A stretch of 61,947 nucleotides of DNA, the filler included. It is 9 parts of 9 records of this genome, joined end to end, with 100 filler letters (N's around TTAATTAATTAA, not from the genome) between each part and the next. Parts side by side here need not be neighbours in the genome. Positions count along the whole stretch, not along the records: positions 1 to 10,817 come from SRR7504441_6844; positions 10,918 to 14,940 come from SRR7504441_6846; positions 15,041 to 24,649 come from SRR7504441_6856; positions 24,750 to 28,604 come from SRR7504441_6867; positions 28,705 to 38,112 come from SRR7504441_6869; positions 38,213 to 44,994 come from SRR7504441_6873; positions 45,095 to 51,291 come from SRR7504441_6880; positions 51,392 to 56,281 come from SRR7504441_6881; 1 more part is not named here. One strand, given 5' to 3'. Position numbers and translations under genes: made by a program. A model generated the notes under the pieces. That model searched no databases. It saw nothing but the letters and a program-made list of their open reading frames with translations, and was not told the origin of the DNA. This document shows positions 581 to 59,741 of the stretch, piece by piece (within the stretch, counting starts at the first letter, position 1; each line of letters starts with the position of its first letter).

Positions 581-1285
581 ATGTCGCTCGATGACACGCT
601 GGCAGAGGCTGGGCTGGTGAGCCGGAGCCGGTCGATCGTGTTCATGAACGAGGACGGTGCGCCGGCCCAGCCCGCGGCTGGGGCCAGCTGGGGGCAGACG
701 AGGCCAAGGAGAAGGAGCAGCAGGCCGAGACGGCCCGGCGGGAAAAGGAGCAGCTGATGGGCGGCGCGGGCGACAAGCTGATGGAGGCGATCAACTGGCG
801 ATCCGGGCAGGACACGGACGCGAACGCGCCGATGACAGATCAGGAGAAGAAGCAGGCAACCGACGACCGGCCGCTGTGGGAGAAGATCAAAGAGCAGAAG
901 GACCAGAAGCAGGCCGACTGGTCCGTTGCCGACCGGGGGGGGGGGGGACCGGCGGGGCAGGGAGCGGGATAACCTGGGGCACGTGGCGCCCAAGGCGCTG
1001 GACGCGGACGATTTGGAGTTTTTGGACGACGTGGACTACAAACGGAAGCAAAAGGACGAGCTGCGCAAGGAGGAGGAGGACGCCGCTATGGCCTCGTTTC
1101 GGATGGCCGTGCACGAGCGAGTGGTCACCAAGCCGAGCAAGCCGGCGATCCGGGCGGACAAGCCAAAGCAGGAGCCGGAGAGGCCCAAGCCGGCTCCGAA
1201 GCGGCGGATGGGGATCAGCCGGGTTGTGAGACCAGCTGCAAAGGTGCAGAAGACAGTGGAGGAGGCCGCAGCACCGGACGGGTAG
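581..1285 (+). CDS. NIP30/FAM192A (PSME3IP1)-like nuclear protein, 2 introns
   Basis: Removing introns 657-697 and 921-960 gives MSLDD...DDRPLWEKIKEQKDQKQADWERDN...KALDADDLEFLDDV. This matches the Nefa_Nip30_N pattern (D-R-L-E-L-EQKD-KQ...LD-D---FLD-V). Confidence 0.75.
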
Positions 1286-1647
1286 CCCGCGCTGGATGTG
1301 CACAGCTGAGCGCGCGGCCTGTGCAGGGAGCCGGCGGGCGAGGGGGGAGAGTCGAAGGCGGCTGGCGGGCTGGGTGGGCTGCTTGGTGCTGATTATTCAG
1401 ACTCGGAGGACGAGGGCTAGACGCTAGCGCGTTGACAGTCATGCCACTGTGCTGTATACGGAGTCTATTAAAGCCGGCTTGTCCGTTCTCCTCGTTTTTA
1501 GAAGTGATCATGACAGCTAATCGTCACCACAATTTAATCCATCTCATGTAATCAAACCTCTGATGCTACTAGCGCTATACGGACCACTCCACCGAACCCA
1601 CACCGGCGGGCCTTGCCGTGGCGCTCAGGCCGCAGCGGCCGGGTCGG

Positions 1648-2460
1648 TCAATCGCGGTGTGGCCGGCCGGCCGCAGTCGCGTATGAGAGGGTGCTCAAAA
1701 AGAACAGAACCTGCGCCGCGTAGTAGGTGACCATCACCACAAAGTCCAGCTCCGGCCGGACCGGCGCCGCCGACGGGTGGAACTTCCACACGGCCAGCAC
1801 CGAATCTGATAGCATGAACACCACTGCGGCACACAGAGCCCTCTTGTGCCCCTGCTGAGTGAGCCGGCCAGGCTCCGGCTTGGATGGGTCGGGCACGGCC
1901 ACGCGCACCGCCGCGGTCCAACCCATCAGGGCGATCACCAGGCTGTAGGCGAGCACCGGCTGCTCTAGCTCTTGCTCAATAAACGGCCGCAGCGTGAAGA
2001 AGACGCCCAAGCCCAGCCCCGCGAACCCAGCCGCAATGCCCAGGCTGGCCGGGACCAGCAGCGGCGGGGCGGCAGTAGCTGGGTCGCGCATCGCCCCGAT
2101 GTAGCTCAGGTGGGCAAGCAGGAAGGCGACCAGTCCCGGCACGAACCTGTCGACGGCGGGCAGAAGCAAAAAGTCGCCCACCGCCGAGAGCCCGAGCCCC
2201 AGGGCGACAAGCCGCGGGTATCGCGGGGAGAGTCCGCGGGGGAAGGCCAGCCAGAGCGCGGCGAGCAGGCACAGGATGGGCGGGCACTTGCTGCCGTAGT
2301 GGACTGCCTCCAGCAGCAGCATCGGCCGGCCGGACGGCTGGTGCGACTGCCAGACGTGCGCGAGCTTAGCCGCCAGGTGGACCGCTCCGAGTGCAATGGC
2401 CAGGCCCACCATCGTCCCGGCCGGTCCGCCCATCCGGGGCGCGCTCCAGCCTTCCACCAT
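1648..2460 (-). CDS. YhhN/TMEM86 family lysoplasmalogenase-like membrane protein
   Basis: Multi-TM protein with family motifs GDFLL, FVPGLVAFLLAHLSY, YSLVI, FMLSDSVLA and VMVTYYAAQ. Intronless; start codon uncertain. Confidence 0.88.
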   Translation of the reverse strand: MVEGWSAPRMGGPAGTMVGLAIALGAVHLAAKLAHVWQSHQPSGRPMLLLEAVHYGSKCPPILCLLAALWLAFPRGLSPRYPRLVALGLGLSAVGDFLLLPAVDRFVPGLVAFLLAHLSYIGAMRDPATAAPPLLVPASLGIAAGFAGLGLGVFFTLRPFIEQELEQPVLAYSLVIALMGWTAAVRVAVPDPSKPEPGRLTQQGHKRALCAAVVFMLSDSVLAVWKFHPSAAPVRPELDFVVMVTYYAAQVLFFLSTLSYATAAGRPHRD

Positions 2461-2594
2461 GTGTGTGTCGAGCTGTTGCGACGTGAGCCGGGCCTGCACA
2501 GTCGGATCTAACGGCAAATTCTGCTCCCAAAACCAACAAGGGCGCTCGCCTAAGGGGCGCTCGCGCTGCAGCTGGGACGCGCTACCCGGCCGTG

Positions 2595-3413
2595 ATGAGC
2601 CCCACGGCCATGATGCGGCAGCGCGCGGAGGTGCAAGTGCCAGTGCCACGCGGCGGGGGCGGGTCGGATGCTGCGATGGACATGTGCGGCCAGCTGCTCA
2701 ACGGCACGTTCATGCACAGAGTGGCCGCAGACCTCCGGTGGACCATACTGATCGCCACCAGCGCGGTGTACATGCTCGGCTTTGTGCTGCTGGGGGCGCC
2801 GCGCTACCCGGATGGCAGCTCGTTGTTTGGTCTCCGAATGCAGAGCTACGAGCTCCTCCCCAGCTGGCTCGGCTGGAGGTTTATGTTCAGCTGGCACATG
2901 CTCTGGTGGGCCGCTGGGGTTTACGGCTTGGTCAAGACCCGGACGACCGACCCAGGCAAGTACGACCCGGCGGTGCACGACACCAATGACCCGGGGCTGC
3001 TTGCCGAGCGGGTGGTGGGCCCGGAGGGGCTGTACTATACAGACCGGGTGCTCCATTGCTTCAAGATCACGCCGGTCGGGACGATCAACCCGCACCAGTA
3101 TGCCCCGGTGCGGACCGACGAGGCCGGGGAAGTGGAGTGGGGCTGCGTGGAGTGTGGGGCTCCTCAGAACCAAGGGTTTAGGCACTGCTACAGCTGCGAG
3201 TGCTGTGTACGCGGGCGGTGGCACCACTGTGGGCTGATTGGGGTGTGCGTTGGGATCAACAACACTTACTACTTTATGCTGCTCCTGACTTCGACCATGG
3301 CCGTCTGGCTGGGCTCGTTCGTGACGCTCTGCCTGACGCAAGTGCCAGTTGTGTTGGGCCAAATGGCTCTTGACACGGTCAACCATTTGGGGGAGTGGAA
3401 GCAGCCGAGCTAA
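2595..3413 (+). CDS. DHHC-type palmitoyltransferase-like protein (WHHC variant)
   Basis: TM segments plus a Cys-rich domain CxxC...RHCxxCxxCVxxxWHHCxxxGxCVGxNNxxYF, followed by a TM helix. Confidence 0.8.
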   Translation: MSPTAMMRQRAEVQVPVPRGGGGSDAAMDMCGQLLNGTFMHRVAADLRWTILIATSAVYMLGFVLLGAPRYPDGSSLFGLRMQSYELLPSWLGWRFMFSWHMLWWAAGVYGLVKTRTTDPGKYDPAVHDTNDPGLLAERVVGPEGLYYTDRVLHCFKITPVGTINPHQYAPVRTDEAGEVEWGCVECGAPQNQGFRHCYSCECCVRGRWHHCGLIGVCVGINNTYYFMLLLTSTMAVWLGSFVTLCLTQVPVVLGQMALDTVNHLGEWKQPS

Positions 3414-3680
3414 TTACTGCTACGTAGTACAGTGTAAGGCCTTAGTCTAGAAGAGACCGCGAGGATACAAGAGAGAGGCGCTCGGCAAACACAGTTTATA
3501 CAATATAATATAATATAGGGTTACGATTTAGACAGATTAGAGATGGACAGCCGGGTAGAGTTAGCACACGAGGTAATCTATCATTGCAATAAAACGCCTC
3601 GATTATAAAAGAACGGAGCGTACGAGTACGACGAGTACTGTACCGTAGTCGCAACTCTTCAACAACGGCAAACTCCGGTC

Positions 3681-4754
3681 ATGGGAGAGCCGCCGCGGGT
3701 TTTGTCGGCCCCGCGGGCCCAGCGGCCGCTCCGGATCGACGGCGACCTGCAGAAGCCGGAGTGGACGCGGGTGGCCTGGTGTGCGCCGTTCCGCGACATC
3801 TCCGGCCACCTGCCGGACCCGGACGCCGCGAATAGCACACAGGTCAAGATGCTCTGGGACAGCGACTATTTGTACGTTGCCGCCCGGATGCGCCGGACCC
3901 TTCCGGTCCGGGCACAGTGCACCCAACGGAATATGCCGATCTTCCACACGGACAGCGACTTTGAAGTGTTCGTGGACCCAGGCTGGCGGTGCCACCGATA
4001 TAAGGAGCTCGAAATCAACCCGAGCAACGTAGTGTGGAACCTGCAGCTCGACCGGCCATACAGCGACGGCGGGCGCGAGCTGAGCGGCCGGGTGGCTGCC
4101 CCGGGCGAGTCCGATTACTATGAAGTGGCCCGTCAGAAGACGGCCTGCAGGCTAGTCAGAGGCAGGCTGGACGGGCCGGAGGGCGAGCCGGCCGAGTGGG
4201 TCTGTGAGCTGGCGCTAGCGCACAGCGACAGCATGGCTGACCAGCCGGGGGGGACGCTCCCTGCCGAGGGCGGCAGCTGGCGGATCAATTTCAGCGCAGT
4301 GGAGCGGGGAGGTGAGATCAACTGGACTTGGAGTAGGCAATGGGCGTGGCAGCCGGGGACGGGGCGGTATGAGGGCGAGGTGAACATGCACTCCTGGGGC
4401 TTTGTGTGCTTCGCGCCTGCGAGTGACAGTGGGGGCGAGCTTGAGCTGACCAGTCTGGTGCTGATCCCGCTGTGCATGCGATGGGAGGCGCAACAGGCTG
4501 CCATGACTTGCTACGCTGCGCAGCACGCTTTCCGCCGGGAGCATGGCCGGTGGGCTAGCAGCCTGCAGGAGCTCCGAGGGCTGCTGGACGAGCGGGCGGT
4601 TGGGAGGTTTGAAGGAGCAGCTGGGAGTTCGAGGGGAGTGGAGCTAGAGGTTAGTCCAGCTGATGACAAGTTTTGGGTGGTGGTCCGCACAGCTTTCGGA
4701 TGCGGATGCCGTGTCGACCAAGACCGCCTGCACACCTGGGACTGCGCGGAATGA
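3681..4754 (+). CDS. carbohydrate-binding family 9-like (CBM9-like) protein
   Basis: IDGDL--PEW, TQVKMLWDSDYLYV, DFEVFVDP, YKELEINP, LDRPYSDGG, WRINFS, NWTWS-Q and NMH-WGFV match bacterial CBM9-like proteins. Intronless. Confidence 0.8.
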   Translation: MGEPPRVLSAPRAQRPLRIDGDLQKPEWTRVAWCAPFRDISGHLPDPDAANSTQVKMLWDSDYLYVAARMRRTLPVRAQCTQRNMPIFHTDSDFEVFVDPGWRCHRYKELEINPSNVVWNLQLDRPYSDGGRELSGRVAAPGESDYYEVARQKTACRLVRGRLDGPEGEPAEWVCELALAHSDSMADQPGGTLPAEGGSWRINFSAVERGGEINWTWSRQWAWQPGTGRYEGEVNMHSWGFVCFAPASDSGGELELTSLVLIPLCMRWEAQQAAMTCYAAQHAFRREHGRWASSLQELRGLLDERAVGRFEGAAGSSRGVELEVSPADDKFWVVVRTAFGCGCRVDQDRLHTWDCAE

Positions 4755-5069
4755 CCACGTGCAGTAAAAACACAACCCCAACCAGTCATTAGAATCCCCT
4801 ATACTCGTACGAGTACATAGAATCCATGATCAGTGTGTCCACATTACACAATACGATGATGAAAAACTGGTCGAGGGTGAAACCGTCCGACATAGGCATG
4901 CCAGTGCAATTTATGTACCCTAGTCGTAATAACTTAGATGATATCCTAGTTGTCAATAAAACCGCCAGCACAGATAACCGAGCACCGCCATGAGCACCGC
5001 GCAGGGCTGCAAGGGCGCCCAGAGTGAGGACGTACAGCTGGGTGACCTTTGGGGTGCGGCCGTTGGGAA

Positions 5070-6560
5070 TCATCTGGAGCGACTTCTCCTTATCCCGCCC
5101 CGGTTGGAGAAAACGTTACAAGACAAATCCAGGCATTTGATCACTTCAGGCGCGTTGCTCAGCTTGGCCGCCGGGCCCATCTCGAGCTTGACGTCCTCCA
5201 GCTGGGCGTCCTCGCAGCTCTGAGGGGTGCTCCAGCCCTCAGGCGTCCCGCCAGAGCCGGTCGGGGGGTGCCAGCTCTGCCACCAGTGGCTCGCTTGACA
5301 CCCGAGCGCTGGGCACACCTCTATGGGCAACTGGCAGCAGACAACTGTGATGTCGTCGCAGTAGGCCCCGCACGTGTTGAACCACTCGTTCTGCCGTCGG
5401 GTCAACCCCAGCCACAGCCAGCGGAGCTCACCTGAGACACCTCCACCAGCGAATAGGCTGCCGCAGAGGTGTGCGCTGCGCGGCAAAACTCACTCATTAC
5501 CTGCCCGACCGGTAACGGAAAGTCGATGTAACGGATACCGTGTCGCCATCCAGAAACTCCCAAAGCCCGTCCGAGGCCACCACTACATAACTATTCTCTG
5601 GACGCAGCTTGCGCTCCGTCACCTGCGGTTTGCCCTCGCAACAGCAGAACAGCCCGCGCGCACCTCAGGGGCGCAAATCACAACCTCTCTACCAAACTCC
5701 ACGTCGCCCACACTGCTCCGCCCGCTACACTCCCCGCGCGCCCCGCGGGCGCACCTCCGGGTGGGACACAGTGCGCACTCGCCCGATGGTGAAAGAACCC
5801 TCTCAGAGCCTCCAAAGGAGCTGATCCGCCCGCCCGCCCGGAGCACCCGCTGCCGCTCCGCCGAGTTCTTCGAGGCCTGCCCCCAGTTGGCCTGGCCGAG
5901 CGCTGTCTGCAGCACCGTGTGGTCGACAGTGAGGTCGGTGCAGCCATAAGCCCCGTTTGAGACAGTGGCCATCGCAGCGCGCGAGTCGCCCACGTTCACG
6001 GTGAAGCACAGGTCCGAGCCGCACACGATCACAATGCACAGCGTGGTGCCGCTCGACCGGCCCTTCCTCTCGCGCATAAATGTTTGCTCCTCGGCGGCAT
6101 AGATGGCCTTAGTGAAAGCTTTGCTCAGCGCCTCCCGTCCCGAGGCCCTACAGTCGACAAAGGTGGGCTCGCCCTCGATCTCAGACATGAACGAGTCCAC
6201 CACCCCTTGCGAGGCGTGGTGCCCCTCTGGTCCGTGCCCGTCCGCTATTAGCAGCATGGTCTGCAGCCCCTGGCTCGGCACCGGCCGGTCAGCGGTTCGA
6301 CCTGGCTTGGGTTGCCGCCAAAGTTGAGCACAACCATTCCGCGGTCCTGCAGCCCCTGGCTCAGCCCGCGCCCCTGGCCGGACGGCTGCCTGATTGTTCT
6401 TTGGGGCGCCGCCGGACCATCCAGGGATTGAGTAGGCCGCCACCGTCGTGGCCCGGCCGCTGAGCGGGTGGGACGCCGGGTAGTAGCCGCCCTTGGGCCA
6501 GGTGCTCGGATACTTACGCTCTCGCTCGCCGTCGCTTGGTTTGGGGCAGCAGCCTCCCAT
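5070..6560 (-). CDS. PP2C-family Ser/Thr phosphatase, ~8 introns, N-terminal MGGCC (possible acylation)
   Basis: The spliced product has NQD, ADGHG, SGTT, NVGDSRA, VDH, TRSVGD, VVASDGLWEF and DDITVV. The 3' end is uncertain. Confidence 0.92.
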
Positions 6561-6998
6561 CGCCCCCCGAGCGTCCCAGTCGAAGCCGTGTGCTGGCCGA
6601 CCGATGTCGTTGAGACTTGTTGGTCATGATCAGATCTTTCACACGTGCACTAAGCCTAGGCCTGGCTGAGTACTGTGCTCTGATACTGTGTACGAGTAGA
6701 GCCCGTATAGAGCCCAGCTGAGTGTGGAAAGCTAGGCTCTTTCCACGCCGAGCCTGGCTTAGTTGTAACCAATCAATGACGGAACCAGTTTGTAAGATTA
6801 GATAGTTCTAACTTGAGCCGCTAGCTACTGAGCCCACTGAATTGCACGGAACAACTGAGCCGCTAGCTACTGCCTGCTATTGCCTACACGACATTGCACT
6901 CCGCTACTCATTAATTAACAACCGAAGCAATGCCATGGAAGAAACGGCGAAGAACCGGCCACAGATGCACATTTGACGCACGGCCTCACACGCCTGTA

Positions 6999-9605
6999 TC
7001 ACATGCCAAGGACATTTCTTCCCATTGCGATGAGAGCGTCGTCAGATGGCCATTTGCCAATCGAGGAGCCCGGGTCGTGACCCTGAGCCTGCCATGCCTT
7101 GAAATCCATCCCACAGACCTGAGTGGTGCCGGATTCCGAGAAGACGTTGTTGTCGTGGACCTCCCAGCCCTCTGACACCTTGCAGTCCGAGCTGTAACCT
7201 GTTCTGAAAACGCAAGTATTGTTGAAAAAGCCATCGTTGTAGCCCTTGAAGCTCCACATGTGATAGCAGTTGCCCACATATGCGAGCACATTTCCATACC
7301 ATTTATTATCATGCCCACCAAAGTCAGATTTGAGTCCTTCGTCCCCGTACGCGAAGAAGTTATCAAACACCTCATAGTAAGCGCTACCGTCGTCGGTGTC
7401 GATCGCCTCTTGTGAGAAGTAGGTCGATAGAATGAAGTTTCCATGAATCCGCCGGGGTGCTGGCACGATCGACGGCTGTCCAGAGCGGATATCGGTGATG
7501 TAGGGCACTCTGCTCCAGCTGTTCCAGGGCCCGTGGTCACTCGACTCACGGACGCAGTTGAGCAGCAAATTGGACGAGATCTCGTCGCCCCCTCCGAACC
7601 CGTCATTGAAATTGAAGGCGGCACGAGGCCCGTTGAAGAAGATGTTCCGTTGTAGCTTGGTCTGAGCCGTCACGGCCTGGAACCATAGTGAGCTCTGCTT
7701 CTGCCACAGCCCGATCTCGTGGCAGATGTTGTTTGTGATGGTGCACCCCCGCGGCTGCTCGCCAGCTCGGCCGTCTGGTCCGACCTTGTACCCACCTGGG
7801 ACGGTCAAGCTGCCGTTCTGATTGAGCGCCGAGGAGGTGTCTCCCCACGCGGCCATCGCCCCGTCGCCTATGAACGAGAACTCATTGTTGTTGATCGTAA
7901 GCCCTCGATTGTAGCCACCGATCTGCCCCCCGCCATCAGCCCAGCCTGGCTAGCGACTCACGAAAATCCCGTTTCCGTCCAGCCGGGTGAGCAAGCAGCT
8001 GTCCACGGTCACATTTTCAGTGCCAATCAGTGTGATCGCGCCCTGCTTCTGCAGGCCCCAATCGCCACCCGACGGGAGCCCGTGCGCATCCATGTAACTG
8101 TAAGCTGTGTCCCGTAGCGTCAGCCCCTTCAAGGCCACGTGGTGCGCAGGCGAAGCCTTGGTCCCGCTAATATTGAACAGCACCTTGAGATGGGTCCCCA
8201 CAAACTCGCCAGTTGGCAGCGCCGTGCTGTCGGTGCTGTTCGGCTTGTAGACAAGCAGCTGTTCGGCCTCATCGTGAAACCACTCGCGTGCCATGTCTAG
8301 CTCCTCGACCACATTCTCAATGTACCAGGCCTCACCGCCAGTCACGCCCTCGCCGCCCTGGATCCCGCCCCTCGAGAACATGAACCTGCCCACACCCAGT
8401 CGGCGCCGGCTCCGACTCGGCACACACCGTGAGCCGTTCTGGTTCCCAGCTCCCACCTCAAAGGCGTTTGTGTACCAGTGCCCGGGCCGCCAAGCGTGTA
8501 TCACTGCGCCCGTCGCATTGCGATACGGTCCGTTAGGCAGCAGCGCCGGGCCCGGGGCGATTCCGCTCGGGTGGTTCGGGGTGGAAATACGCCGCGGGGC
8601 GCCAGGAGCGCACCAGTACCCCACTGGCGGCGACCGGTCCACACAAGTGCCACCAGCTCCGAGCCAAAACTCACCCCATTCGCCCTCTCCGGTCCAGCTG
8701 TCCGGATCGACCGTGCCGTTGGTCCGAATCTGCATCGGCCACTCCACTCCCGGCCAGTCCGCCGCACTGATCACAAAAGTCTGGGCGGTCGACCTCGGAG
8801 GCCACGGAGATATTCCGTTCATACTCCCGGTGGTACTCGCCACCCACTCGGTGTGCTCAGTGATCCAGCCATCGCGCCCGTCGTGGAAGTGGCGCTGTCC
8901 GTTGATCGTCGAGTCGAGCTCCGGGTCGAAATTGGGGTATCGAGCCCGTATCTCTCTCACGCCGTCCCTCCTGAGCCCGAGCAACTGCCCCGGCAGCTCT
9001 TGTCCCGCGAGCGAGGCTTCAAAGCAGCCAGCGCAGCGGGATGAGGGCCGCCACTGGGTGTCCAGCTGGATGCCCCCGGACACTACGGCCTCCTCGCCGT
9101 CATGGTTGCGGATCGTGAGCCGCGAGTCGGCCGCGGTCAGCTCGATCGTCCGGGCGAGCCAGTGAACCCCTTGACGAAGCACCAGCTCGGCGGCCTGGCC
9201 CCGTGTGCGGAGCCGGCGGCTCGCCTGGACGGCGGCCCCGATGGTGCGATAAGCGATGGTGCTGTTGGACTCCGCGAGCGTGTCGTCACCGCGCCGAGGA
9301 TCCACGGAGAGGATGAGCGTGCCCGCGGGGGGCGACGGGTGGGTTTGGACCGGGCCCCAGTGGTCCTGGCTGGTCGGGACCGGCAGTCCGCATGCCTCGA
9401 GCTGGAGCGCGTCGAACAGCGAGCGGAACTGGCCGCGCGACGGCTGGAGCGACCGGCCGTATTCCCAGGCGAACTTCCGGATGGCGCAGTCGGTGTGAGG
9501 GTCGATCCCAGGCGGGGTGCCCGAGTGCACCAGCTGGGGATCGGCAGCGGCTAGCGGCGCCCATAAGAGGGCCAGGAGCGGGAGAACACTCGTCTGAGCA
9601 CTCAT
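6999..9605 (-). CDS. secreted right-handed parallel beta-helix (pectin-lyase-like) protein, 2 introns
   Basis: Signal peptide MSAQTSVLPLLALLWAPLAAA, LVLRQGVH, ARYPN, WYIENVVEELD, GNGIF, NFNDGFGGG and CVRESSDHGPWNSW. Introns 7923-7961 and 8386-8427 join the two long ORFs. Confidence 0.78.
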
Positions 9606-9722
9606 TGACCAAGGTTGCCCGGCTCCGAAACCGCTCCGAAACAGTAACGGCAATCGGAAATCCACCACCGCCGTCGACCGCAGCAGCAGCTTCCTACGCA
9701 ACAGCGGCGGCGGAAGCTCCCA

Positions 9723-10399
9723 ATGTTGACGGAGTCCTTGCTAGCGGATGTGCTGACGCATGCCGTCCGGTCTCGGCCCGGGCACCACTTGTGGAACTGC
9801 CGATCGGTCTGCCGGGGCTGGCACAACATCTGCTGCGAGTGGCTGCCCTGGGTCCAGTCGGTTGCGCTGAAAGGCGCCAGCTGGCGGCCTGCGGTGCTCA
9901 GCAGCCCGCTGCCTGGCCCAGAGCTCTCGATAGAGCAGCTTCGCAGCTTCTGGCTGTGGATGAGTGACTCGATCGGCGACGGCCGGTTTGATGGGTACGC
10001 CAATCAGTTCGATCATGACTACGATAGCCTCAAATTCGGCTGGTGCCAAGGCCAGAAGCCGCTCGGGCCACCGACCTGTTCTCGCCCCGGGTCGCATTCG
10101 AGTGAGCCAGAGAAGTCTGGCTTGTGGCTGAGCCGGCGCTGGCAGGGGAGCTCGAATTCAGTCCAAAGGTGGTGCGAGAATTTGCACCGAAGAGCCTGCG
10201 CCAGCACTTATGCTTCTGCGTTTGCCACTTAGTAAGTGGTGGCCGTGACTTCAGTTGTGTGCTTGCGGGCGCAGCCTGTAGTGGTCGGAGCGGCAATGAC
10301 GGAAGCTCGAACCAGTCTGTCTGCAATCTTGTGGTGCGGTGCACTAGCGGCGCTCACGAAAGCTTCAGTGTGTACCACAGCTCTCACACCGATATCTAG
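9723..10399 (+). CDS. possible F-box-like protein; exon structure unresolved
   Basis: N-terminal L--VL-------LW-CRSVCRGW resembles an F-box. The C-terminal part probably lies in frame 10124-10399. Confidence 0.4.
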
Positions 10400-10639
10400 A
10401 ACTTTGATTAAAACTTTACCGGTCGAATCTATAAGATTGTATGCACTGATATGGATTGTACTCGAACCATGTTCAAATGAATCACATACTTGATAGTAAT
10501 TATCTAGACTCAAACGCTGTTCTAGGCTTTGTCTTACAAACAACAAAATAGGAGCCTGCATGGCCAGGTGTAGCCCGCACTCATAACCAGCAGTTCCGGT
10601 CCGCTGAGCTCAGCCAACTCGATGGAAGGTCTCCCCACT

Positions 10640-10817
10640 CTACTGCCCATAGCCCGCGTATCCGCCTTGCATGGCGGTGTACCCTCCCCACTGTTGGGCC
10701 TGGGCCTGCCGCTTGGCCGCCTCGCCATCGTAGCCGTTCTCCAGCCCGCGCTTCTTGCTGTTGCTGCTGGAGACGGCGGCCGGGAACTGGAGCTCGAAGG
10801 CGGCTTCGTTCTCACGG
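10640..10817 (-). CDS. 3' end of an unknown gene truncated by the contig end
   Basis: Open frame RENEAAFELQFP...AQQWGGYTAMQGGYAGYGQ* with GC-rich codon usage, followed by AT-richer sequence. Confidence 0.4.
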
Positions 10818-10917
10818 NNNNNNNNNNNNNNNNNNNNNNNNNNNNNNNNNNNNNNNNNNNNTTAATTAATTAANNNNNNNNNNNNNNNNNNNNNNNNNNN
10901 NNNNNNNNNNNNNNNNN
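10818..10917. other. artificial contig spacer N44-TTAATTAATTAA-N44
   Basis: Identical 100-nt spacer with stops in all six frames, found eight times in the window. Confidence 0.98.
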
Positions 10918-12019: not shown

Positions 12020-14226
12020 CTAAGCCACACGGGACCGGCTACTGTGCACTCTGCATTGCCGTTCAATTGCAGCGTGAGGCACCTCCGTCGCTCCGATGTT
12101 CTCCCGCAGCGTCTCCAGCGCCGCCTCCTGGCAGATATTGGCCAGCTCGGCCCCCGACAGGCCGTCGGTCATCTCGGCCGCCCGATAGACCAGCCCTTCT
12201 AGTCCTTCCCTACTCACCGCCACTTTGCTCGCCAGCAGTCGCAGGATCTCAGTCCGAGCCACAAGGTCTGGTCGCGGGACCTGCCAACCGCTGGCCCGGC
12301 CCGAGCTGAGCGAGACCTCGATCATTAGCTCGATCCGGCCAGCCCGGATGGCGGCTGGGTCGATCTTATCTGGATGACAGCTAGCTGCCATCACTACCAC
12401 CCGCGCATCCTGCACCACAGCTCACTAGGTAAGCCACTCGCAGCCACCTCAGTGCGCTTCATCCCATCCATTTCGGTTAACATCTGCGAGAGCAGCCGGC
12501 CCGAGCTGGCGCTGCTAACCGTCCGCCTAGGGGCGAGCGCTTCCAGCTGATCTATAAAGAGCACGCAAGGTGCCGCCGCTCTTGCCCGTGCAAACAGCGC
12601 CGCAAGGTTGCTTTCGGATTGGCCAACCACCCGGGACAGCATCACCGGGGCCTGGACCTCGATGAACCCGCAGCCGAGCTCGTTGGCCACTGCCTCAGCC
12701 AGCAGCGACTTGCCGCATCCAGGTGGTCCGTGCAGCAGCACTCCCCTTGGGGGCTCGACCCCAAGCCTGGCGAACCCGGCCTGCCACGCAGGATCCAACG
12801 GACAGATAACGGCCGACCGGAGCGCCCGGACCGCATCTGGCCGCCCGGTCAGGCCGCACTGGCTGGTCGCACCGTCGAGTCCAGCCACGGAGCTGAAGGT
12901 TGCGCCCGCCCTCCTTGGGCCGACTGTCTCGAGCCCTGCTGGCGCCCTGCGGGTGAGCGCATATTCAAACTCGCCGAGCTTCGGATGGCTCTTGAGCGCA
13001 ACAGCGTCGCTGCACAGCGCGCGCAAGTCGGCTGCGGTGTACCTGCGCCGTCGATGAGCCTCTCGGCACCGTGGGAGGCACCCCGATGTGCGAGTGGCCA
13101 GCGTCGCAAAGTCTGTGCCAGTCAAGCTGCCCGCCTTGGCTATAGCCGCCTGGAGGATGGCCATCCGCTGCTCTGCCTTGGGCGGCCGGATGGCCAGGCA
13201 GTGTCCAAAACGACCAGCCCTGAGCAGCGCCGGGTTGACTGCTTCAGGCGTCGAGCAGGTTGCGAGCACCAGGCTGCCAGAGGGAAGCCCATCCATTACC
13301 TGGCCCACAACGGCGCAGAGCGCCACTGTCCCGGCCCCGCCGGAGCGCGGGGCGAGCAAGTGTATCTGGTCGATTACTAGGATCCGGCCGGGCCCCGCAG
13401 CTTCAACCGCGTCAGCCACCGCCTGCTCGGGTGTGCTAGAGGCCACCAACTCCGCTGCCGCGAACAGCCGCAACGGCAGCCGGCCCGCCTCGGCCACTGC
13501 CCGCACCAGCAGCGACTTGCCGGAGCCGGCAGCTCCGCAGACCAGCACACCTCGTACCGGGCCGCCGGAGAGCGCCTGCCTGCATCGATCGACTAGCTCC
13601 CGACACACCGACGGGTAGCCGGCAAACCGTCCCGCCACAGCCTCGGCCCACGCCCCGGGCTCCGGCAGCTCTGACCCCGCTGGCGGCTGAGGTATGGTCT
13701 CCGGGGCTGGGTGTATGGCCAGCTGGGTACTCACACCGATCACCACCGGCTCCTCAGGGCTGACGCTAGTGACCCAGAAGGCCTGATCGATCCCGCGGAA
13801 GCGATGTCCGATCAGCGAGCCGGCGCCCACCACGCGGCCAGTCAGCAGCTCTCGCACGGCGGTGGCCACCGCCCCGCGAGCCGGCGGGCAGCCCGCAGTC
13901 GGGGCTAGCCTGCCGCTCCGGTCCACATCTAGCTGGGTCACCGCAACGGACTGAGCCGGCGCCGGCCGGTCGATGGGCGAGAGCTGCACGCGTACTGTGT
14001 TCCCGGGGGCCGCCCCGAGCTCGGCCGCGGCCAGCCTTCCGAGCTCGAGCTCCGGCCCGTCGCCGGCCGCGCAACGCAACAGCCCGCTCCCGCCCGGGCC
14101 GCGGACCCGGAGGACCGAGCCGGGCCGGAGGCCGCAGTCGGCGAGCACTGCGGCGGGCACCGCCAGCCCGGGGGACTCCGGCCCGGCCCGGACGGCCCCC
14201 ACCCGAAGCTCGGCCTCGCCGCTCAT
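12020..14226 (-). CDS. CDC48/AFG2-like double AAA+ ATPase, >=4 introns
   Basis: CDC48-like N region, Walker A motifs GAAGSGKS and GPPGCGKS, SRH motifs PALLRAGRF and DPAAIRAGR, and GLSGAELANICQEAAL. Walker B reads DQ in both domains. Confidence 0.9.
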
Positions 14227-14377
14227 TCAGCCCCGGCGGCGAGCTGATTTGACGTTGGCAAAAAGGTGAAGGAGGCAAAAGGTGGGTGGTACGAGTCGGC
14301 ACCGTGGCTACTGCGGGAGGTTCCAACCTCGATTTCAGTCTTGCTATCCCCTCACTGACCCATGCGACCGGTTCTCC

Positions 14378-23091: not shown

Positions 23092-23131
23092 GATGATCCT
23101 TTTTATTTTTTTTTTATTCGGAGCACCAACC

Positions 23132-51291: not shown

Positions 51292-51391
51292 NNNNNNNNN
51301 NNNNNNNNNNNNNNNNNNNNNNNNNNNNNNNNNNNTTAATTAATTAANNNNNNNNNNNNNNNNNNNNNNNNNNNNNNNNNNNNNNNNNNNN
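51292..51391. other. artificial contig spacer
   Basis: N44-TTAATTAATTAA-N44. Confidence 0.98.
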
Positions 51392-51503: not shown

Positions 51504-53401
51504 ATGCGGGGTGTTGTGGGCGGTAGAGGGTGCAGTCTGAGCCGGGCAGCGTGCTCGGCACTCAGGCCGGCCGGTGCCACCACGAATGCAAGTGTGGGCT
51601 TCTGCTCCGCGGCGGCAGAGCTCGGTGACCAGACTGCCGGACGGCGCTCTAACCAGATGCAGGCGGGCACGGATTCTCGATCGAAGGCGAGTCCCGCGAC
51701 GGCCGACCGTCCTACCTGGACATGCAGTCAACCACCCCGATCGACCCGAGAGCTCTGGACGCAATGCTGCCCTTCCTGACCAACTTGTATGGAAACCCGC
51801 ACTCCAGAACTCACGAGTACGGTTGGGAGACCGAGACAGCAGTAGAAGACGCGCGCCAGGTGCCAGCGCCTACAGATGGCCGCTCTGTGCCCTTGATGCG
51901 CCGCGACAGGACGTAGCAAATCTGATCACAGCGGATCCGAAGGAGGTGATTTTCACATCGGGTGCGACGGAGTCCAACAACATCGCTGTCAAAGGAGTCG
52001 CGAGGTATCAGCTCAGTCCTCCGGTGTGCAGCAAGGCAGACTGGCAGGTTTTACAGTGAGCGAAAGAAGCACGTAATCACCACCCAGACTGAGCACAAGT
52101 GTGTGCTGGACTCTTGCCGCCACCTTCAGGCGGACGGTTTTGATGTGACGTATCTGCCGGTCAACAGCGACGGTATGCAATCCGCCTGCAACGACGGGAT
52201 GGCCCGACCGAACGTGCGATGTGTGCGGCAGGTCTGGTGAGTGTTGCAGACGTTGAGGCTGCCATCCGGCCAGGAGAGACCAGCTTGGTGTCGGTGATGT
52301 TTGTCAATAACGAGATTGGAGTGGTGCCCAGACGAGCTGTCCGGTGTGAGCGTGACACCCACCCGACAGATTCAGCCTATTACGGAGATTGGAGCGTTGT
52401 GTCGGAAGCACAAAGTGTTCTTCCATACTGATGCTGCTCAGGTATCACCAACCTTTGTGCGGGCTAATCTTTCTACGTGTTGCATTGCAGGCTCTAGGTA
52501 AGATTCCAATCGATGTCAACGCAATGAATATTGATTTGATGTCTCTCAGTAGTCACAAGGTCTACGGTCCAAAGGTGAAGTTTGCTCACCTCTGCCTCCA
52601 TGCCTGATTGAAAGCATGAGACTACTCCCCATGTGGCGGTCCAGGGCACCAATCTTAATCACTCGGCAGGGAATTGGTGCACTTTATCTGCGACGGAGGC
52701 CTCGCGTCCGCTTGGAAGCTCAGATGAGTGGTGGTGGCCAGGAGCGCGGCTTGCGATCTGGCACACTAGCCCCGGCGCTGGTTGCTGGTTTTGGCAAGGC
52801 GTGTGCGATCGCACAGGAAGAAATGGAGCGTGATCACGAATGGGTCTCTTACCTTGCCCAGCGGATGGAGCATGGTGTCTTTTCACAGTGTGATCACGTA
52901 CGGGAACAGTAGCCCGCTTGGTGTCACCCCATCATTGCAGGTACAAATCAATGGGCACAAGGATCAGCGTTACCCAGGCAACCTCAATATGTCGTTCTCG
53001 TACGTAGAAGGCGAAAGTCTGTTGATGTCACTCAAGGAAATTTCGGTCTCGAGCGGTAGTGCTTGCACCAGTGCTTCCCTGGGTGTGTGACTGATGCCAA
53101 ATGCTCTAGTCTAATTCTCATTTGTCTTGCAGAGCCATCATACGTGTTGAGGGCGCTGGGTGTCGAAGAGGATGTTGCACATTCATCCTTGAGGTATGAA
53201 CCAGTGCAGTTTTATTGGCCGATTTGATGAGGCTTTGTGCAATTCAGGTTCGGCATTGGACGCTTCACTACAGAGAAAGAAGTGGACCGCGCAGTGGAAT
53301 TGGTAGTGAAGCACGTCGATCGTTTGCGCGAGATGAGTCCTCTTTGGGAGATGGTTCAAGAAGGGATTGATATCACGAAGATCGAGTGGACACAGCATTG
53401 A
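51504..53401 (+). CDS. NFS1: mitochondrial cysteine desulfurase, 10 introns
   Basis: Arg/Ser/Ala-rich presequence, [36 protein letters not shown] lysine [10 protein letters not shown], catalytic SGSACTS and C-terminus IEWTQH*. Confidence 0.97.
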
Positions 53402-53797: not shown

Positions 53798-56041
53798 TTA
53801 TCTCTTGTTGAAGTTTGTACTTGCTATTGCATTTCGGAGTGCTCTTTCCGGTGACAACGTCGTAGCAGAGCTGCTTAATTGAGCTTTGTTGGTAGTGGAT
53901 CTTAATGGGCTCTTTGTGGGTGACGGTTTCATTGGGCTTTGTGATACTGATTGCGATAAACTGGGAGACAAGGACAACGATGCACCACCACCCGGGCCAT
54001 GCTCGCGATGCCATGCGTTTGGAGATGTAGCATCACGTGCTAGCATTGACTTTGCCACATTGCGATTGTGCCTACTTTCTTCATACTTCAACTGCATTTC
54101 TACCAATCCATATTCAGGATTGCTGGGTGACTTGCGAGGTGACTTGTTTGGGGAGCTGCGAGGCGATCTGCGAGGTGACTTGTTCGGTGAGGCTCTACGA
54201 GACACCTTCACGGGAGACACCTTCACGGGGCTCTGGTGGCCTGGAGCATGCCTGGGTACAGGGCTTGCTTCATACTCCTCATTCTCCATGACAAGATCAA
54301 ACATTTGAGGTAGCCTACTTTTCAGCGCTTCATACTTAGCCTTCCACCTTTGCACTTCATTCTGAGAATCAAGCTGCTGTGATGTGTGGACTGGCTCTCT
54401 GGAGACAGCTACCGTCTTCTCACTTTCCTCTGTCAGCCTTTCAACGTGGTCACGGAGCCTATTACACTCCGCCTCCAATTCATCAACCTGTGCTGCCATA
54501 GTTGATGATCTCTGTTCACTTTCCCTTTGTGCTTGCATCATGATTGCGTGCCTTTTTGCATCTTCCATTACCTGCTGCTCTGCTCTCTTTGCTCGAGCTC
54601 TTAGTTCACAAATTGCTTCAGACTCATTTGCTTGGTCTGCCTGACTTTGTTTGATAAGGTGAGTCATTCGCTCGTTACACCAAGTGCTCAAGTGCTGAAT
54701 CTCGTTCATGTGATGCACCCCCAACCGGTCCCCTGGTTGGAAAGCTGACAATTTCGCAAATAGTGTGTTTGTACTGTTTTGAAGAGCCGCCAGTCCATCC
54801 TCAAGATTCTCTTCCTGAGCTCCGAAAGCATGCTCTGAGGCAGATTGATTCACGTGAGCAGTGATTTTCAGCTCTTTCGCACGAGTGGCAAATCTGAGAC
54901 TTGAGATTGTCTCTTCATAGTTGCTCCAATGTGGAGAGCACGCCACCAGGAGAGATGTCTTGGTATTGCCGCCGAGGCTGTCTTTTAGCAAGTGCGTTAG
55001 CTTGGAGTCACGATAAGGTACATGACCGCGAGCTGGTTCTGTGAGTGCTTGGATGCAGTTGCCAAGCGCTGACAGAGACTTGTTGATGCCCCTTGCCTCC
55101 ACTAGTTGTCCGCCGCTTGCTCGACTCTTGTGCACCTTTTCACTCCCCGCAAGGTCCACCATTACGAGCTTCCCAGTGATCACCATACCATCTTCAAATG
55201 ACTGCTCGACAAGCATCGTGACCAAACTGTGGCTCCGTGAACTCCTTTCGCTCATGTCGGTGTGAGCCACTGAGCGAGCTTTGTCTGCGGCTACTACATA
55301 CCGCATCATCTCAACTTCTGATTGCACCACCGCCTGCGTCAGATTATCCACCCACACACCCTGGTTCGGGGTCTCTCGCAGCTTGAGGCTGCTCTCCGAG
55401 TGGCTCATCATATCATAAAGCTGCTCCTGATAGATCTGAAGGAACGAGCACGTGATTTTGACGGTGGCGCCTTCCTCCTCCCTGTTCCTGGCTTCCCCAA
55501 ACACCTGCGCACAGACGCGAGGAATGGCCCCCTGCAGCACTGGGTCCCGAAGCCGTTTGGGCGGACCCTGCATCGTGTAACTTTTCCCGGCGCCGGTCTG
55601 ACCTAACCCCCGGCCATCACTCAACGGCGGACGAGGTCTCAGCCACCGTAGGCCAGAATGGTCCCATTGTAGCCCATGAGCACGTCGTCCACAGCAGGCG
55701 CCACAGCGTAGTCGTACACCTCCCTTTGACCCGCCTGACACCGCTGCGCTCAGGCACCGAGCGCCGGCCGGCTGCACAACGTGACCCAGGGCCAGCCAGG
55801 GGCGGCCACCTCCTCAGCGAAAATGTGGTCGAAGTGGAAGTACAGCTTCTCCAAGTCGTAGAAGCCCACCACGGTGGTCTTGCTCCCGATGATGAAGCCT
55901 TTACTCAGCGCCTCGGGGCGCTTGTCCTGGTCGATCCGCTTCTCGCGCTCGTTGAGCGGCCGAAACCTGGCGCACGCTCGGCACCGCTGGCAGCGTGACG
56001 GGTGCCCACCTGATCGCCACTCTGACCGGCTCGGACGACAT
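53798..56041 (-). CDS. N-terminal-motor kinesin (kinesin-1-like) with coiled coil and SP-rich tail, 3 introns
   Basis: VRVAIRFRPLN, GYNGTILAYGQTGAGKS, SSRSHS, DLAGSE and HVPYRDSKLTHLLKDSLGGN. Confidence 0.95.
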
Positions 56042-56281: not shown

Positions 56282-56381
56282 NNNNNNNNNNNNNNNNNNN
56301 NNNNNNNNNNNNNNNNNNNNNNNNNTTAATTAATTAANNNNNNNNNNNNNNNNNNNNNNNNNNNNNNNNNNNNNNNNNNNN
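56282..56381. other. artificial contig spacer
   Basis: N44-TTAATTAATTAA-N44. Confidence 0.98.
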
Positions 56382-56585: not shown

Positions 56586-56832
56586 TGGGCGTCTCACTAC
56601 ATGATTGAATGAAGCGTCATCAGGATGATGCGCCATCACAAATTATATACTAGTACGACTATAGATCTTGCACGGCCATTGCCGATTCTGTACTTGGTTT
56701 ATTAATTTTATAAGCACTCAGCTGCAGAGTAATAAAAAATCACAATCTTTGGCCAGTAGCTACAAGCTACGTGTACATGTAGCTAGCCGCTAAGCTGGGC
56801 CAACCCCCAGGCTCCTCTCCGCGTAGTCGCAA

Positions 56833-58579
56833 TCAGGAGCTGTATTTCTCGCGCATCTTTTGGAGTAGTTCGTCCTCCCTCCCCTGATAGCCTCGAAGTA
56901 GCTTATCTGCCGTGCGGTCAGCCCAAACCCGACCAGCCAGTCACCGATCGATCCATCCTCGAGCTTGCTCGGGTTGTGCACAGCATAAAGCTTCTCCATC
57001 TCAGCCCGGTAAAACGCCAAATCCTCCGCGGGTGCAGCAGCAGGTGCATTCGCCTGCCCAGGCTGGCCCAGGCCCAACCCGAGTCACACCTCAGCCTTCT
57101 TCGCAGCCCTTGCAGCGGCCTTGCTCTTCTTGTTCAGATCGTGGAACCCCTCGTAGATGGCGTTGGCGTCCGCCTTTGACCCACCCATGGCTACTATGTT
57201 TTTCTCAAAGTCGCACCAGTGTTCAACCGCGAATAATTTACCCGAGTACTTGAGTTGAGCAAGCTGGGCAAACCTGCCGCCCTCGAGTTGCTTGACCCAG
57301 GAGTTGAACTTGGCCTTGGACCACTGCTCCGGCCCGACAAATTGCTTCTTCTGCTTCTCCAGCCGAGAGATCTCCACCATCTCCATGGCGTAATGCAGCG
57401 TGTTGCGTGTGTGAGGCAGCATCGAGGCCAGCGGCGCAATGTGCGCTATAAACACTGCGCTGCAGTTGCTCGATGCTCGTTGCTCGAAGCACTCCTTGAG
57501 CAGCATGGTCAGTTTGGCGTTCCGATACGGCACGTGCGCCGGCTTGCCGCCCCTAGCGTTCTGAAGGTTAACTTGAATGCACTGCTTGAGACAGGCCAGT
57601 GACCAGTTAATCTCTTTTGACTCGGCAACCCGCTCCACAGAGTGGTCCATCTGCCGGGGGCAGTCAGCCCCTACCCGGCACCGCCAGCACACCATGTCCT
57701 CCTTGCGCTCGGACCCGGCAAGATCCACTATATGCACCGAGCCTGCCTGGCCCGGCACACGCATCACACACACTGAGTGCGACCGACTAGAGTGCGAATT
57801 CGCCATGGTGGCCTCCGTCCGGCGCCGGCCAGAAGCTGCCCGGTCCACTGGCACGGGCCCGGGGAGGGGGCACCGGTGGCCATGACGGCGTGCAACTGCT
57901 CGAGAGAACCGAGCTCCACCTCGTGGAGGCCGGCAACCACCATCTTGCCGTCGCCGGCCTCCCTGATCGGCAGCGACGAGTCGCGGTACTCGTCCCCGCT
58001 CCCGGCAGCCAGCAGATCGTAGTTGTCGTCGCCGCAATTCTCGAATATCGAGAGGGCCAGCCCAGCGCCATGGCTGTGCTCGAGCAGACGCCGCCCGGCC
58101 TCCAGTTGCACTCGCTGCTGAGTGTACGTCTTACCAGATCCGGTCTGGCCGTATGCTACCGCGAACCCGGTCCCGCCCTCCTGCCACCGGGCCACCACCG
58201 CGCTGACGATCTGGTCTGTGATCTCGTCGTCCGGCTGGTTCGGCCCAAACGCTTGGTGGAGCTGGTACCGCTTGTGGGTGAGCTCACCGGTGCATTCGCC
58301 AACCGCCAGCTCGGGCTCGTGGAGATAAACCGCGTCCGGGGGGACCACCGTGGCCACCTCGTGCTCGGCCACGGACACCAGTCGGCGGCGACTCTCCACG
58401 CCCAGCCGCTCGTCGTCCAGCAACGGACGGAGGCGCGCACAGACCGCGGTCCCGGCGATCGGGAGCGGAGGGGCCGGGTTGCCGGACGGCCCGACGGCCC
58501 GCCACTCGTCAACTTGCTGCTGCAGCCGCACAGCCAGCTCAGCCTGGGCGGCGCTCGCCTCGTAGTGCGAGTTGTCCAT
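56833..58579 (-). CDS. kinesin-13/DSK1-like kinesin with small C-terminal helical domain, 4 introns
   Basis: VCARLRP, AYGQTGSGKT, SSRSHS, DLAGSER, EINWSLACLKQCI and HVPYRNAKLT-LLKECF. Tail reads LYAVHNPSKL---IDKLL--YQGREDELL-KMREKY. Confidence 0.9.
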
Positions 58580-58768
58580 TTGTATTAAAAAGTAACGGAC
58601 TCGCCCCTCCCTTGCATTGCACAATGTGATGATTGTATTGTACGATTGTATTGCTAATCGCATGTATATCTAGCACTCATCTATGATTGTATAAAAGACG
58701 CGGGTTCGGCTGATATTCGAACCGCAGGGCAGCCAGCAAAGCTAATGAGTCATCAGCTCAATACGTGC

Positions 58769-59741
58769 TTACTTGCACACGACCACGGTGTGCTTCCCAA
58801 CCCAGGTCTCGCCTGCCGGCACCACCGCCGGCACGCTCCCCACCGCCGGCTCGATACAGGCGTAGTTGGCCCACTCGCCCGCCCCGAGGTCGGCCATTCC
58901 TCCTGCCTTCTCCTCTCCAATGTTCCACACAACCCAATCAGGAAAGTTCTCTTTATACTGCCCCCACAGCTGAGCCCTATCACAGCCAGCCGCGCACCAG
59001 CTCGAGCACCGGCGTGCCCTTCTCCAACAGAGCAACCTTGTCCGCAGCCCCGCCGAAGAAGAGTTCGGTCTCCCCTCGGAATGGCACGTCACCTTCGTGA
59101 GTTTCGGCGCCGCCGAAGCTGCTCCCGACCCCAACGTCCTTCTTGCAGCCGTCCAGTCCGACCACCGTGCAGTCCGACACGCTGGCGCACTGCCAATAGC
59201 CGTGCAGCGCTCCTGTGAACTCGATCGGCTCTCCGCCCTTGTTCTGTACAGACAGCTCCATCGTCAGCGCCTTGGACTCCAGCCTAACGATGTACCTGCC
59301 CCAGTATCCACACTCTGCTACCGGGCGTGCCGCCCACCGGAGCACGAACTCGGCTGGCCAGGCCTCACGCATCGCGTCGTCCGGTTGGAGCTCGAGCGTG
59401 GCAGAAGCGGCGGTGTGGTCCACTAGCTTCCACAGCTCAGACGTCCGCACGAACCCATGTTTCTTGCCCGGGGCAGCCGCGGCGGTTGTGAACTTGCCGA
59501 ACCTGCCCACAGAGTCGCCCGTGCCGCCGGGCGCGGATCACTGTGGCCAGCAGATCGGGACACCCCCTCGGACGGCCTTGCCCGGCACGTCGATGTCGGC
59601 TTTACTCGAGACGAACAGCTTCTCCTCGCCGGCAACGGTCCAGTGCAACACGTGCGCCGCGTACACGCTGATCTCGCACTCTGCTCCCTCCGTCGCCAGC
59701 CGTACCCGCCCGGCCATCTCGGCTGCGTCGCGTTTTGCCAT
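58769..59741 (-). CDS. glucose-6-phosphate 1-epimerase (aldose 1-epimerase family), 3 introns
   Basis: AVRGGVPICWPQFG, HGFVR---W, FTGALHGY, DWVVWN and CIEPA. Confidence 0.93.

Follow-up and report, generated by a model that had tools for sequence, protein, structure and literature searches.

Human G-rich ultra-short introns of 37–65 nucleotides (nt) (Shimada et al. 2015, PMC4463651; Sasaki-Haraguchi et al. 2012, cited there) are reported in the accessible text of PMC4463651 to require a G-rich enhancer. Other short introns in humans, whose pyrimidine tracts are truncated, undergo SPF45 (RBM17)-dependent, U2AF-independent splicing (Fukumura et al. 2021, PMC8363638), and the available part of that paper states that U2AF65 requires at least eight pyrimidines. 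Here, these systems were compared with the tiny introns of a 61,947-base window, by which we mean the whole stretch of DNA analysed, consisting of nine separate contigs of 3.9–10.8 kb with G+C contents (GC) of 0.535–0.670. In the GC-rich contigs the enrichment of G before the 3′ splice site exceeded chance, and was frequent without being universal. Judged from their sequence, these are probably genuine U2-type introns (GT-AG, rarely GC-AG) near the smallest workable size, which would be recognised by their geometry and would carry a modest, non-obligatory G-rich acceptor.

At the level of sequence, the human G-rich ultra-short introns would be the closest parallel. As far as they are described in the accessible text, the two groups have in common a length of about 40–50 nt, G as the commonest base, G triplets or longer runs, poor splice-site and branch scores and the lack of a proper pyrimidine tract. 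When the measures used for the human class (below 66 nt, G commonest, G triplets) were applied to the 20 curated introns of the GC-rich contigs, all 20 were 45 nt or shorter, G was the commonest base in 16 and a G triplet lay within the last 12 nt of 14. Additionally, two window introns held GGCTGGG-like strings resembling the enhancer described in the available part of PMC4463651. On the same partial account the human ultra-short introns are a handful among long introns, whereas here such introns were apparently standard in GC-rich regions. The G run of the window introns adjoined the CAG (positions −7 to −4) and nearly all of them had a plausible branch A, which also sets them apart from the human introns as described there. 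The closest mechanistic parallel may be SPF45-dependent, U2AF-independent splicing, as in both cases the spacer between the branch and the AG is too short or too pyrimidine-poor for U2AF65. This SPF45 route is a known means of splicing when the tract is missing. In what is accessible of the published description, however, the tract of the SPF45 introns is a shortened pyrimidine tract and not, as in the window, one of G.

In most lineages that have length-peaked minimal introns, these introns are AT-rich. The window introns were GC-richer than their surroundings and had a G-rich 3′ end, and in this they were unlike the minimal introns of fungi and protists. The likeness to those introns lies in a narrow, short class in which length is informative; in fungi and protists intron length contributes considerably to recognition, according to the accessible part of Iwata and Gotoh (2011, PMC3033335). 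The same part of that paper gives Aureococcus anophagefferens the largest 'information deficit' among 61 species and reports 22–40% GC-AG donors for A. anophagefferens and Micromonas pusilla. Both are, like the source of the window, GC-rich marine picoeukaryotes with weak splice-site information, but GC-AG introns made up 1/30 of the window set against the 22–40% given there, and the accessible text of PMC3033335 mentions neither a 38-nt mode nor a G-rich acceptor for these two species. The NFS1 protein of the window also grouped with environmental sequences and not with the named lineages of the tree. In small GC-rich vertebrate introns, G-triplet enhancers reportedly help to define the intron borders; the work of McCullough and Berget in 1997 is said to have found the triplets throughout the intron and mostly in support of the 5′ site. 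The G enrichment in the window peaked beside the 3′ site, unlike that of the vertebrate enhancers.

Word searches of an open-access library turned up no protist or other lineage in which a G tract is the normal 3′ end of introns, a negative which is not proof of absence and gives weak evidence for the novelty of such a lineage. For comparison, 15 loci from other metagenome contigs were taken that carry relatives of a beta-helix gene in the window, with 39–100% identity to the first sequence of the query profile. The clear introns of these relatives (L002, L005, L007, L008 and L012–L015) were about 63–250 nt long with CT-rich or T-rich tails, such as ..TCTCTCTCTCTTCTTTCTCTCGCTCGGCAG and ..TTGTTTTTTTGCCGCAG, and none of these clear introns was tiny and G-tailed. 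The longer, pyrimidine-tailed introns of the relatives show that the feature is not common to all carriers of this gene family; the relatives belong to other lineages and are uninformative on the lineage of the window itself.

Introns were located by aligning proteins to the genome with a spliced aligner, in which a GT/GC..AG intron carried the same penalty whatever its length, and by Pfam scans of 222 stop-to-stop open reading frames (ORFs). The curated set of 30 comprised 13 homology-defined introns, one weak intron, seven that were profile-defined (Pfam or PDB) and nine that were rule-defined, each of the last being the sole frame-consistent GTR..YAG segment of 30–100 nt between adjacent coding ORF cores. 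Nine gene-strand junctions had exactly one GTR..YAG candidate in this length range. The GTR and YAG ends were imposed on the nine rule-defined introns and on some of the profile-defined ones. The RPAP1 homologues aligned reliably around three introns only, and overfitted calls elsewhere were ignored. Ab initio finders (a dynamic programme that scored codon log-odds under a flat length prior, and a forward-backward version of it) were noisy and were used for hints only; an unbiased codon-based gene finder recovered 1/9 verified NFS1 introns exactly. The best NFS1 homologues lay on contigs barely longer than their own coding sequence and therefore stand for intron-free forms.

The curated introns began with GT in 29/30 cases and GC in 1/30 and ended with AG in 30/30, these being the only ends that the aligner and the rule allowed; the gapless junctions of the 13 homology-defined introns show that the ends fit. 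Removal of the introns restored conserved coding sequence at the NFS1, beta-helix and RPAP1 junctions and at seven profile junctions, across which the profile coordinates continued (FAM192A, AAA, two kinesins, aldose epimerase and both RPAC2 introns). U12-type introns have the consensus RTATCCTT at the donor and TCCTTRAY at the branch, and none of the curated introns began with RTATCC. The corresponding strings 'ATATCC' and 'CCTTAAC' are quoted in the accessible text of PMC3033335.

The original prediction had named five segments as examples among 'dozens' of introns. All five were present with the ends and G runs that it described, as GT..AG or, for 44087–44126, GC..AG, and removing each one opened a frame. 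Four of them (7923–7961, 921–960, 44087–44126 and 657–697) were supported as introns. The fifth, 24161–24200 on the plus strand (40 nt, ending GTGGGGGGCAG), was one of seven frame-consistent candidates, a rival at the same junction being 24143–24182, also 40 nt, and it was kept as a candidate only. The number of introns verified was 30, and no larger figure was reached.

That the segments are something other than introns, namely assembly errors, pseudogene frameshifts or copies of a small introner-like mobile element, is very improbable. The assembly is fragmented and two of the segments contain homopolymers of 12–13 G, which are prone to error. Set against this, all 30 segments started with GT or GC and ended with AG, their lengths were peaked, and they interrupted conserved domains at gapless junctions. 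As regards a mobile element, the similarity among intron cores was only that of positional composition, with a best pairwise score of 11 compared to 8 for shuffled sequences over cores of about 32 nt. An introner or repeat family was rejected, as there was no family-level similarity among the intron cores.

Analysis of intron length revealed that 20/20 curated introns of the GC-rich contigs were 36–45 nt long and that 8/20 were exactly 38 nt. A choice-free histogram of 124 distinct frame-consistent candidates had 14 at 38 nt and eight at 40 nt, with 0–4 at most other lengths, six at 31 nt and eight at 52 nt. The ten introns of contig 8 (GC 0.535) were 43–95 nt long, 7/10 being longer than 45 nt, and intron length fell with rising local GC (rho=−0.52, p=0.003); the narrow range thus exists but does not apply throughout. 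The introns were GC-richer than the surrounding 1 kb (0.69 compared to 0.60), which is the reverse of the usual pattern. Over whole introns of the GC-rich set the G content was 0.44 and the C content 0.30.

In the GC-rich introns, positions +6 to +13 were C-rich (0.35–0.55). A C-rich 5′ part could pair with the G-rich 3′ part in a hairpin, so that the introns would be defined by structure, and several minimum-free-energy folds did pair GTGCC with GGCAG. The folding energy was, however, no better than that of shuffled sequences (mean z −0.35, p=0.14, n=20), and 5′ halves paired with their own 3′ halves at −13.6 kcal/mol compared to −13.2 kcal/mol with those of other introns (p=0.31). With both the folding test and the own-partner pairing test null, the hairpin was rejected and we give it very little credence.

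The 3′ ends of the GC-rich introns differed clearly from exonic sequence. G at positions −12 to −4 was 0.51 compared to 0.35 over 200 nt of flanking exon (Wilcoxon p=0.001). The enrichment peaked at −7 to −4, where the mean was 0.66 compared to 0.34 at 491 exonic YAG decoys (p=1e-6); position by position, G was 0.65–0.70 in introns and 0.32–0.38 before decoy YAGs in confident exons. At least three G at −7 to −4 were found in 12/20 GC-rich introns compared to 56/491 decoys (Fisher p=6.6e-7). As a guard against selection, all distinct candidate acceptors were compared, and at least three G were present in 20/43 of those with a GTR partner at 36–45 nt compared to 5/38 of those without one (p=0.001). 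With 23 copies in the window against 21.5 expected, the string GGGGCAG showed no over-representation; five copies ended curated introns and two more ended candidates. GGG occurred within the last 12 nt of 14/20 GC-rich introns. No pyrimidine tract was found in the GC-rich introns, the pyrimidine content at −12 to −4 being 0.39 and the longest run of pyrimidines within the final 20 nt averaging 2.6.

The donors carried G at exon position −1 in 26/30 cases and a purine at +3 in 29/30, including 13/13 homology-defined introns, in which it was not imposed; positions +4 to +6 held almost no information. The 5′ splice site amounted to 6.8 bits over −3 to +8 and the 3′ side to 9.0 bits, of which about 2 came from −7 to −4. 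A strict YTRAY branch motif with its A at −12 to −24 occurred in 10/30 introns compared to 7% of exon windows, and a relaxed motif in 19/30 compared to 36%. An A was present at −16 to −11 in 28/30 introns overall and in 19/20 of the GC-rich ones. Only 7/140 bases at −10 to −4 of the GC-rich introns were A, so the putative branch A is almost the sole A in the 3′ third. Adding the tract positions to the scoring of introns against 609 exonic GT..AG decoys of the same length raised the area under the curve from 0.954 to 0.980, and decoys at or above the score of the median intron fell from 15 to 10 of 609. The approximately 2 bits and the better separation from decoys suggest that the G run is a modest, non-obligatory part of the acceptor.

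The GC-rich introns followed a common plan of an exonic G followed by GTG, about 20 G- or C-rich bases, a single A at about −12 or −13, often within CTGAC, CTGAG or CCGAC, then an A-free, pyrimidine-poor and mostly G spacer and CAG followed by an exonic G, with a commonest total of 38 nt. The low-GC introns were 43–95 nt long and more canonical (GTA/GTG..CTAAT/TTGAT..TGCAG). Such introns would be recognised across the intron (intron definition). As the donor and branch motifs are weak, a fixed geometry, in which the branch lies about 26 nt past the donor and the 3′ site about 12 nt further on, may supply the information that they lack, and a length of 38 nt with the A at −12 would seem to be a steric minimum. 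The 3′ site would be the first YAG past the only available A, and the spacer of about 8–9 nt between branch and CAG would leave neither room nor need for a pyrimidine tract of the U2AF65 type. The extended acceptor GGGCAG|G may act as a modest, non-obligatory signal through contact with a protein or a small nuclear RNA (snRNA).

If this plan holds genome-wide, routine splicing would take place near the physical minimum with a weak donor and a branch motif that can hardly be recognised, and purines would predominate where textbooks put the pyrimidine tract. Such a genome would let one ask how recognition of introns is shared between geometry and sequence, and whether tract binding of the U2AF65 type is dispensable or can be retargeted. 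Standard gene finders will mis-annotate such genomes, so that proteins catalogued from assemblies of this kind will come out fragmented.

Several points weigh against recognition by geometry with a G-rich acceptor. The introns were curated from proteins and ORF geometry; 16/30 were our own selection (seven from profile coordinates and nine by the GTR/YAG rule); and the sample was 62 kb of one fragmented assembly. The branch points were placed from sequence alone, with a strict YTRAY in just 10/30 introns, and 6–10 of the 609 exonic decoys still scored like the median real intron, which means that the measured signals are insufficient alone. The G tract was absent from 8/20 GC-rich introns, and one intron on a GC-rich contig (30741–30778) had a pyrimidine-rich tail. 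The introns of contig 8 had no G tail (0.33 compared to 0.30 in exons), and the tract therefore tracks local base composition.

The last of these points bears on a passive origin, in which the minimal introns of a GC-rich genome lose A after the branch (an AG-exclusion zone), T is rare and strand-biased mutation or gene conversion leaves G in preference to C, the spliceosome taking its cues solely from GT, YAG, the spacing and the branch A. A tail that is G-rich only at high local GC agrees with such a by-product, as do the tractless introns, a run of no fixed length or position, a G-richness that extends over the whole intron, the GC excess of introns over their surroundings and the fall of length with GC. 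The distribution of bases within the introns fits it less well. G at −7 to −4 (0.66) exceeded that of the intron interior (0.43; Wilcoxon p=0.001), and C at the same positions was depleted (0.15 compared to about 0.29 in decoys), which symmetric GC pressure would not bring about. The introns of contig 8 still kept G at −4/−5, and only there (12/20 positions, p=0.005), and the tract helped to separate introns from decoys. We consider a passive by-product possible, if somewhat doubtful.

The opposite proposal is that the G tract is a required 3′ element. A short G tract abutting the CAG would functionally replace the pyrimidine tract within a fixed 38-nt geometry, the preference of the U2AF heterodimer, or of a substitute, having shifted to guanine. 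The reader would be a diverged U2AF large subunit or a stand-in, for instance a qRRM protein that binds G tracts or a UHM (U2AF homology motif) protein resembling SPF45 and recruited through SF3b155. The depletion, in place of an enrichment, of pyrimidines before the 3′ site and the approximately 2 bits in the tract speak for this proposal, and the human ultra-short introns that need a G-rich enhancer, as reported in the accessible text of PMC4463651, set a precedent. Both the tractless GC-rich introns and the low-GC introns must, however, be spliced by the same machinery. Furthermore, the available part of PMC3033335 reports that the 5′ end of U1 is canonical in the GC-rich picoplankton that have unusual donors, and unusual intron signals do not therefore have to reflect a changed machinery. 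Pfam and Rfam scans of the window found no U2AF1, U2AF2, SF1 or snRNA genes. A required G tract is in our view unlikely, both as the replacement of the pyrimidine tract and as the target of a changed reader.

Read against these results, the observation behind the original prediction is real and above chance, with its length range limited to GC-rich regions and its G tail not universal. The predicted range of 36–45 nt described the GC-rich contigs and failed for contig 8, and G-rich ends in excess of local composition were likewise confined to the GC-rich contigs, except at −4/−5. Donors were said to share little beyond GT/GC; they were otherwise degenerate, but the exonic G at −1 and the purine at +3 were shared. 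The branch motif, described as loose, matched a strict YTRAY in 10/30 introns. The idea that length and a G tract together define the introns agrees with the 38-nt mode, the 6.8-bit donor, the missing pyrimidine tract, the approximately 2 bits in the G-rich positions and the better separation from decoys, and disagrees with the introns that have no G tract; it is plausible in a mild form, and its strong form is improbable.

The source organism is an uncultured marine protist. The window had a eukaryotic gene set by Pfam, including kinesins, STT3, RPAP1, CSTF2, a modular polyketide synthase, MORN/RCC1/EF-hand proteins, NFS1 and an RPAC2-like polymerase subunit. The only public runs containing part of the window DNA were one aquatic and one marine metagenome (5% of sampled words), and no RNA run was listed for positions 1–10000. 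A comparison of 1–10817 with the two DNA runs gave, among the matches listed, 16 short contig pieces of 90–99% likeness with no joints and nothing that bore on splicing. In the tree, the spliced NFS1 protein belonged to a clade of environmental sequences with five members; the most similar sequence shared 87% identity with the NFS1 protein, which was not inside the named oomycete, diatom, fungal or animal groups. The contigs were joined by eight artificial spacers (44 N, TTAATTAATTAA, 44 N) at 10818–10917, 14941–15040, 24650–24749, 28605–28704, 38113–38212, 44995–45094, 51292–51391 and 56282–56381; as the contigs are separate, gene order across the spacers has no meaning.

All nine introns of the NFS1 gene on the plus strand of contig 8 were found in 4/4 spliced alignments with gapless junctions, and the spliced product was 416 amino acids long, free of stops and 87% identical to P0002. 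These introns were located at 51860–51909 (50 nt), 52005–52047 (43 nt), 52173–52231 (59 nt), 52324–52369 (46 nt), 52442–52490 (49 nt, with a T-rich tail), 52575–52669 (95 nt, the longest verified), 52898–52940 (43 nt), 53083–53132 (50 nt, with a T-rich tail) and 53194–53247 (54 nt).

The first two introns named by the original prediction on the plus strand lay in a gene at 581–1420 (+) that is a homologue of FAM192A/Fyv6 (Pfam PF10187); we take Fyv6 to be a second-step splicing factor which affects 3′ splice-site choice. The intron at 657–697 (41 nt, ending GCTGGGGGCAG) was the sole GTR..YAG candidate at its junction and its removal restored the frame. The intron at 921–960 (40 nt, ending GGCGGGGCAG) contained an internal run of 13 G; the FAM192A_Fyv6_N profile reached position 58 before it and position 67 nine residues after it. 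An alternative shifted by 4 nt (925–964) was likewise 40 nt and G-rich. A third intron in this gene, at 1282–1326 (45 nt), was a unique candidate that was also called by both dynamic-programming gene finders.

On the minus strand, the beta-helix gene had an intron at 7923–7961 (39 nt, GTGAGT..CTGAT..GGCGGGGGGCAG), which was placed by 6/6 homologues with the gapless junction DGNGIF|IGGYNRG. A probable in-frame intron of the same gene at 8386–8427 (42 nt) was given by 2/6 spliced alignments, the other four homologues carrying a long insertion at the site. The intron of an AAA ATPase at 12410–12447 (−, 38 nt) was bounded by AAA profile position 98 upstream and position 99 from 12409, and used the only GT donor available for its acceptor.

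An SF-assemblin-like gene on the plus strand had an intron at 16513–16550 (38 nt, ending GGCGGGGGTAG), which was a unique candidate with gene-finder support. Additionally, in this gene, which lies on a GC-rich contig, a 38-nt AT-rich candidate with a GTT donor and no G tail was present at 16755–16792 (+). It fitted the coding cores exactly and was called by both gene finders; the GTR rule listed 16793–16830 instead, and neither segment was counted.

The three RPAP1 introns were on the minus strand. That at 19540–19582 (43 nt, CTGAC at −12) was found in 8/8 spliced alignments. The one at 20221–20261 (41 nt, GCTGACCGGCGGGACAG) was found in 1/8, that of the closest homologue P0239, with which the junction read PFLGETLQ|EDL, and by the gene finder. 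The third, at 20489–20527 (39 nt), was found in 2/8 spliced alignments, the closest homologue included.

Four introns were placed in a myosin-head-like gene on the plus strand. A homologue search with this gene gave no match, and these introns of about 38–41 nt therefore rest on ORF geometry alone. Each was a unique candidate at its junction: 29839–29876 (38 nt); 30643–30683 (41 nt, TTGAC at −12 and no G tract), which the gene finder also called; 30741–30778 (38 nt, CTGAC at −12 and the pyrimidine-rich tail CCCTGCCTCAG), called by both gene finders; and 30953–30990 (38 nt, CTGAG at −12), which had the top gene-finder support.

A CSTF2-like gene had a unique candidate at 37922–37959 (−, 38 nt, ending CCGCCGGGGCAG), with RRM_1 on the upstream ORF. 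The RPAC2/AC19-like gene, also on the minus strand, had two introns. The first, at 44204–44241 (38 nt, ending CGCGGGCAG), separated ORFs matching RNA_pol_L_2 positions 1–24 and 24–50, and the alignment to solved RPAC2 chains began exactly at the exon start predicted from it. The second, at 44087–44126 (40 nt), was the GC-AG intron, with an internal run of 12 G. The RPAC2 alignment reached ..RVQTNGE at its donor, and it was the sole candidate that kept these residues and joined the next frame. A PDB search with the third RPAC2 exon returned chance matches only.

In the motor domain of a kinesin, the intron at 55603–55646 (−, 44 nt, ending GCCGGGGGTTAG) placed Kinesin profile position 82 on a split codon, the flanking ORFs matching positions 52–82 and 82–326. 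A second kinesin gene, also on the minus strand, had a unique candidate at 57054–57089 (36 nt) and, in the motor, another at 57836–57873 (38 nt, ending GACCGGGCAG), flanked by Kinesin profile positions 30–185 and 183–326. The intron of an aldose-1-epimerase-like gene at 59503–59541 (−, 39 nt, ending CTGTGGGCAG) was again a unique candidate, with Aldose_epim positions 3–78 and 82–181 on its flanks.

A long gene or gene cluster at 38213–42654 (−) encoded RCC1 repeats, MORN repeats and EF-hands. It had about six junctions, at each of which a segment of 37–43 nt was among several candidates, and none of these was counted. The region 24751–28603 (−) encoded a fragment of a modular type I polyketide synthase (KS, ACP, KS and the N-terminus of DH). 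Near 27346–27406, the junction between two long ORFs of this synthase held a candidate intron, either 61 or 40 nt long, whose signals (GTGAGT..CTGAC..TGGCAG) look canonical. Additionally, a full-length signal recognition particle RNA gene was present at 14281–14584 (−), matching the Rfam model Metazoa_SRP at 123.7 bits over model positions 1–299 of 299.

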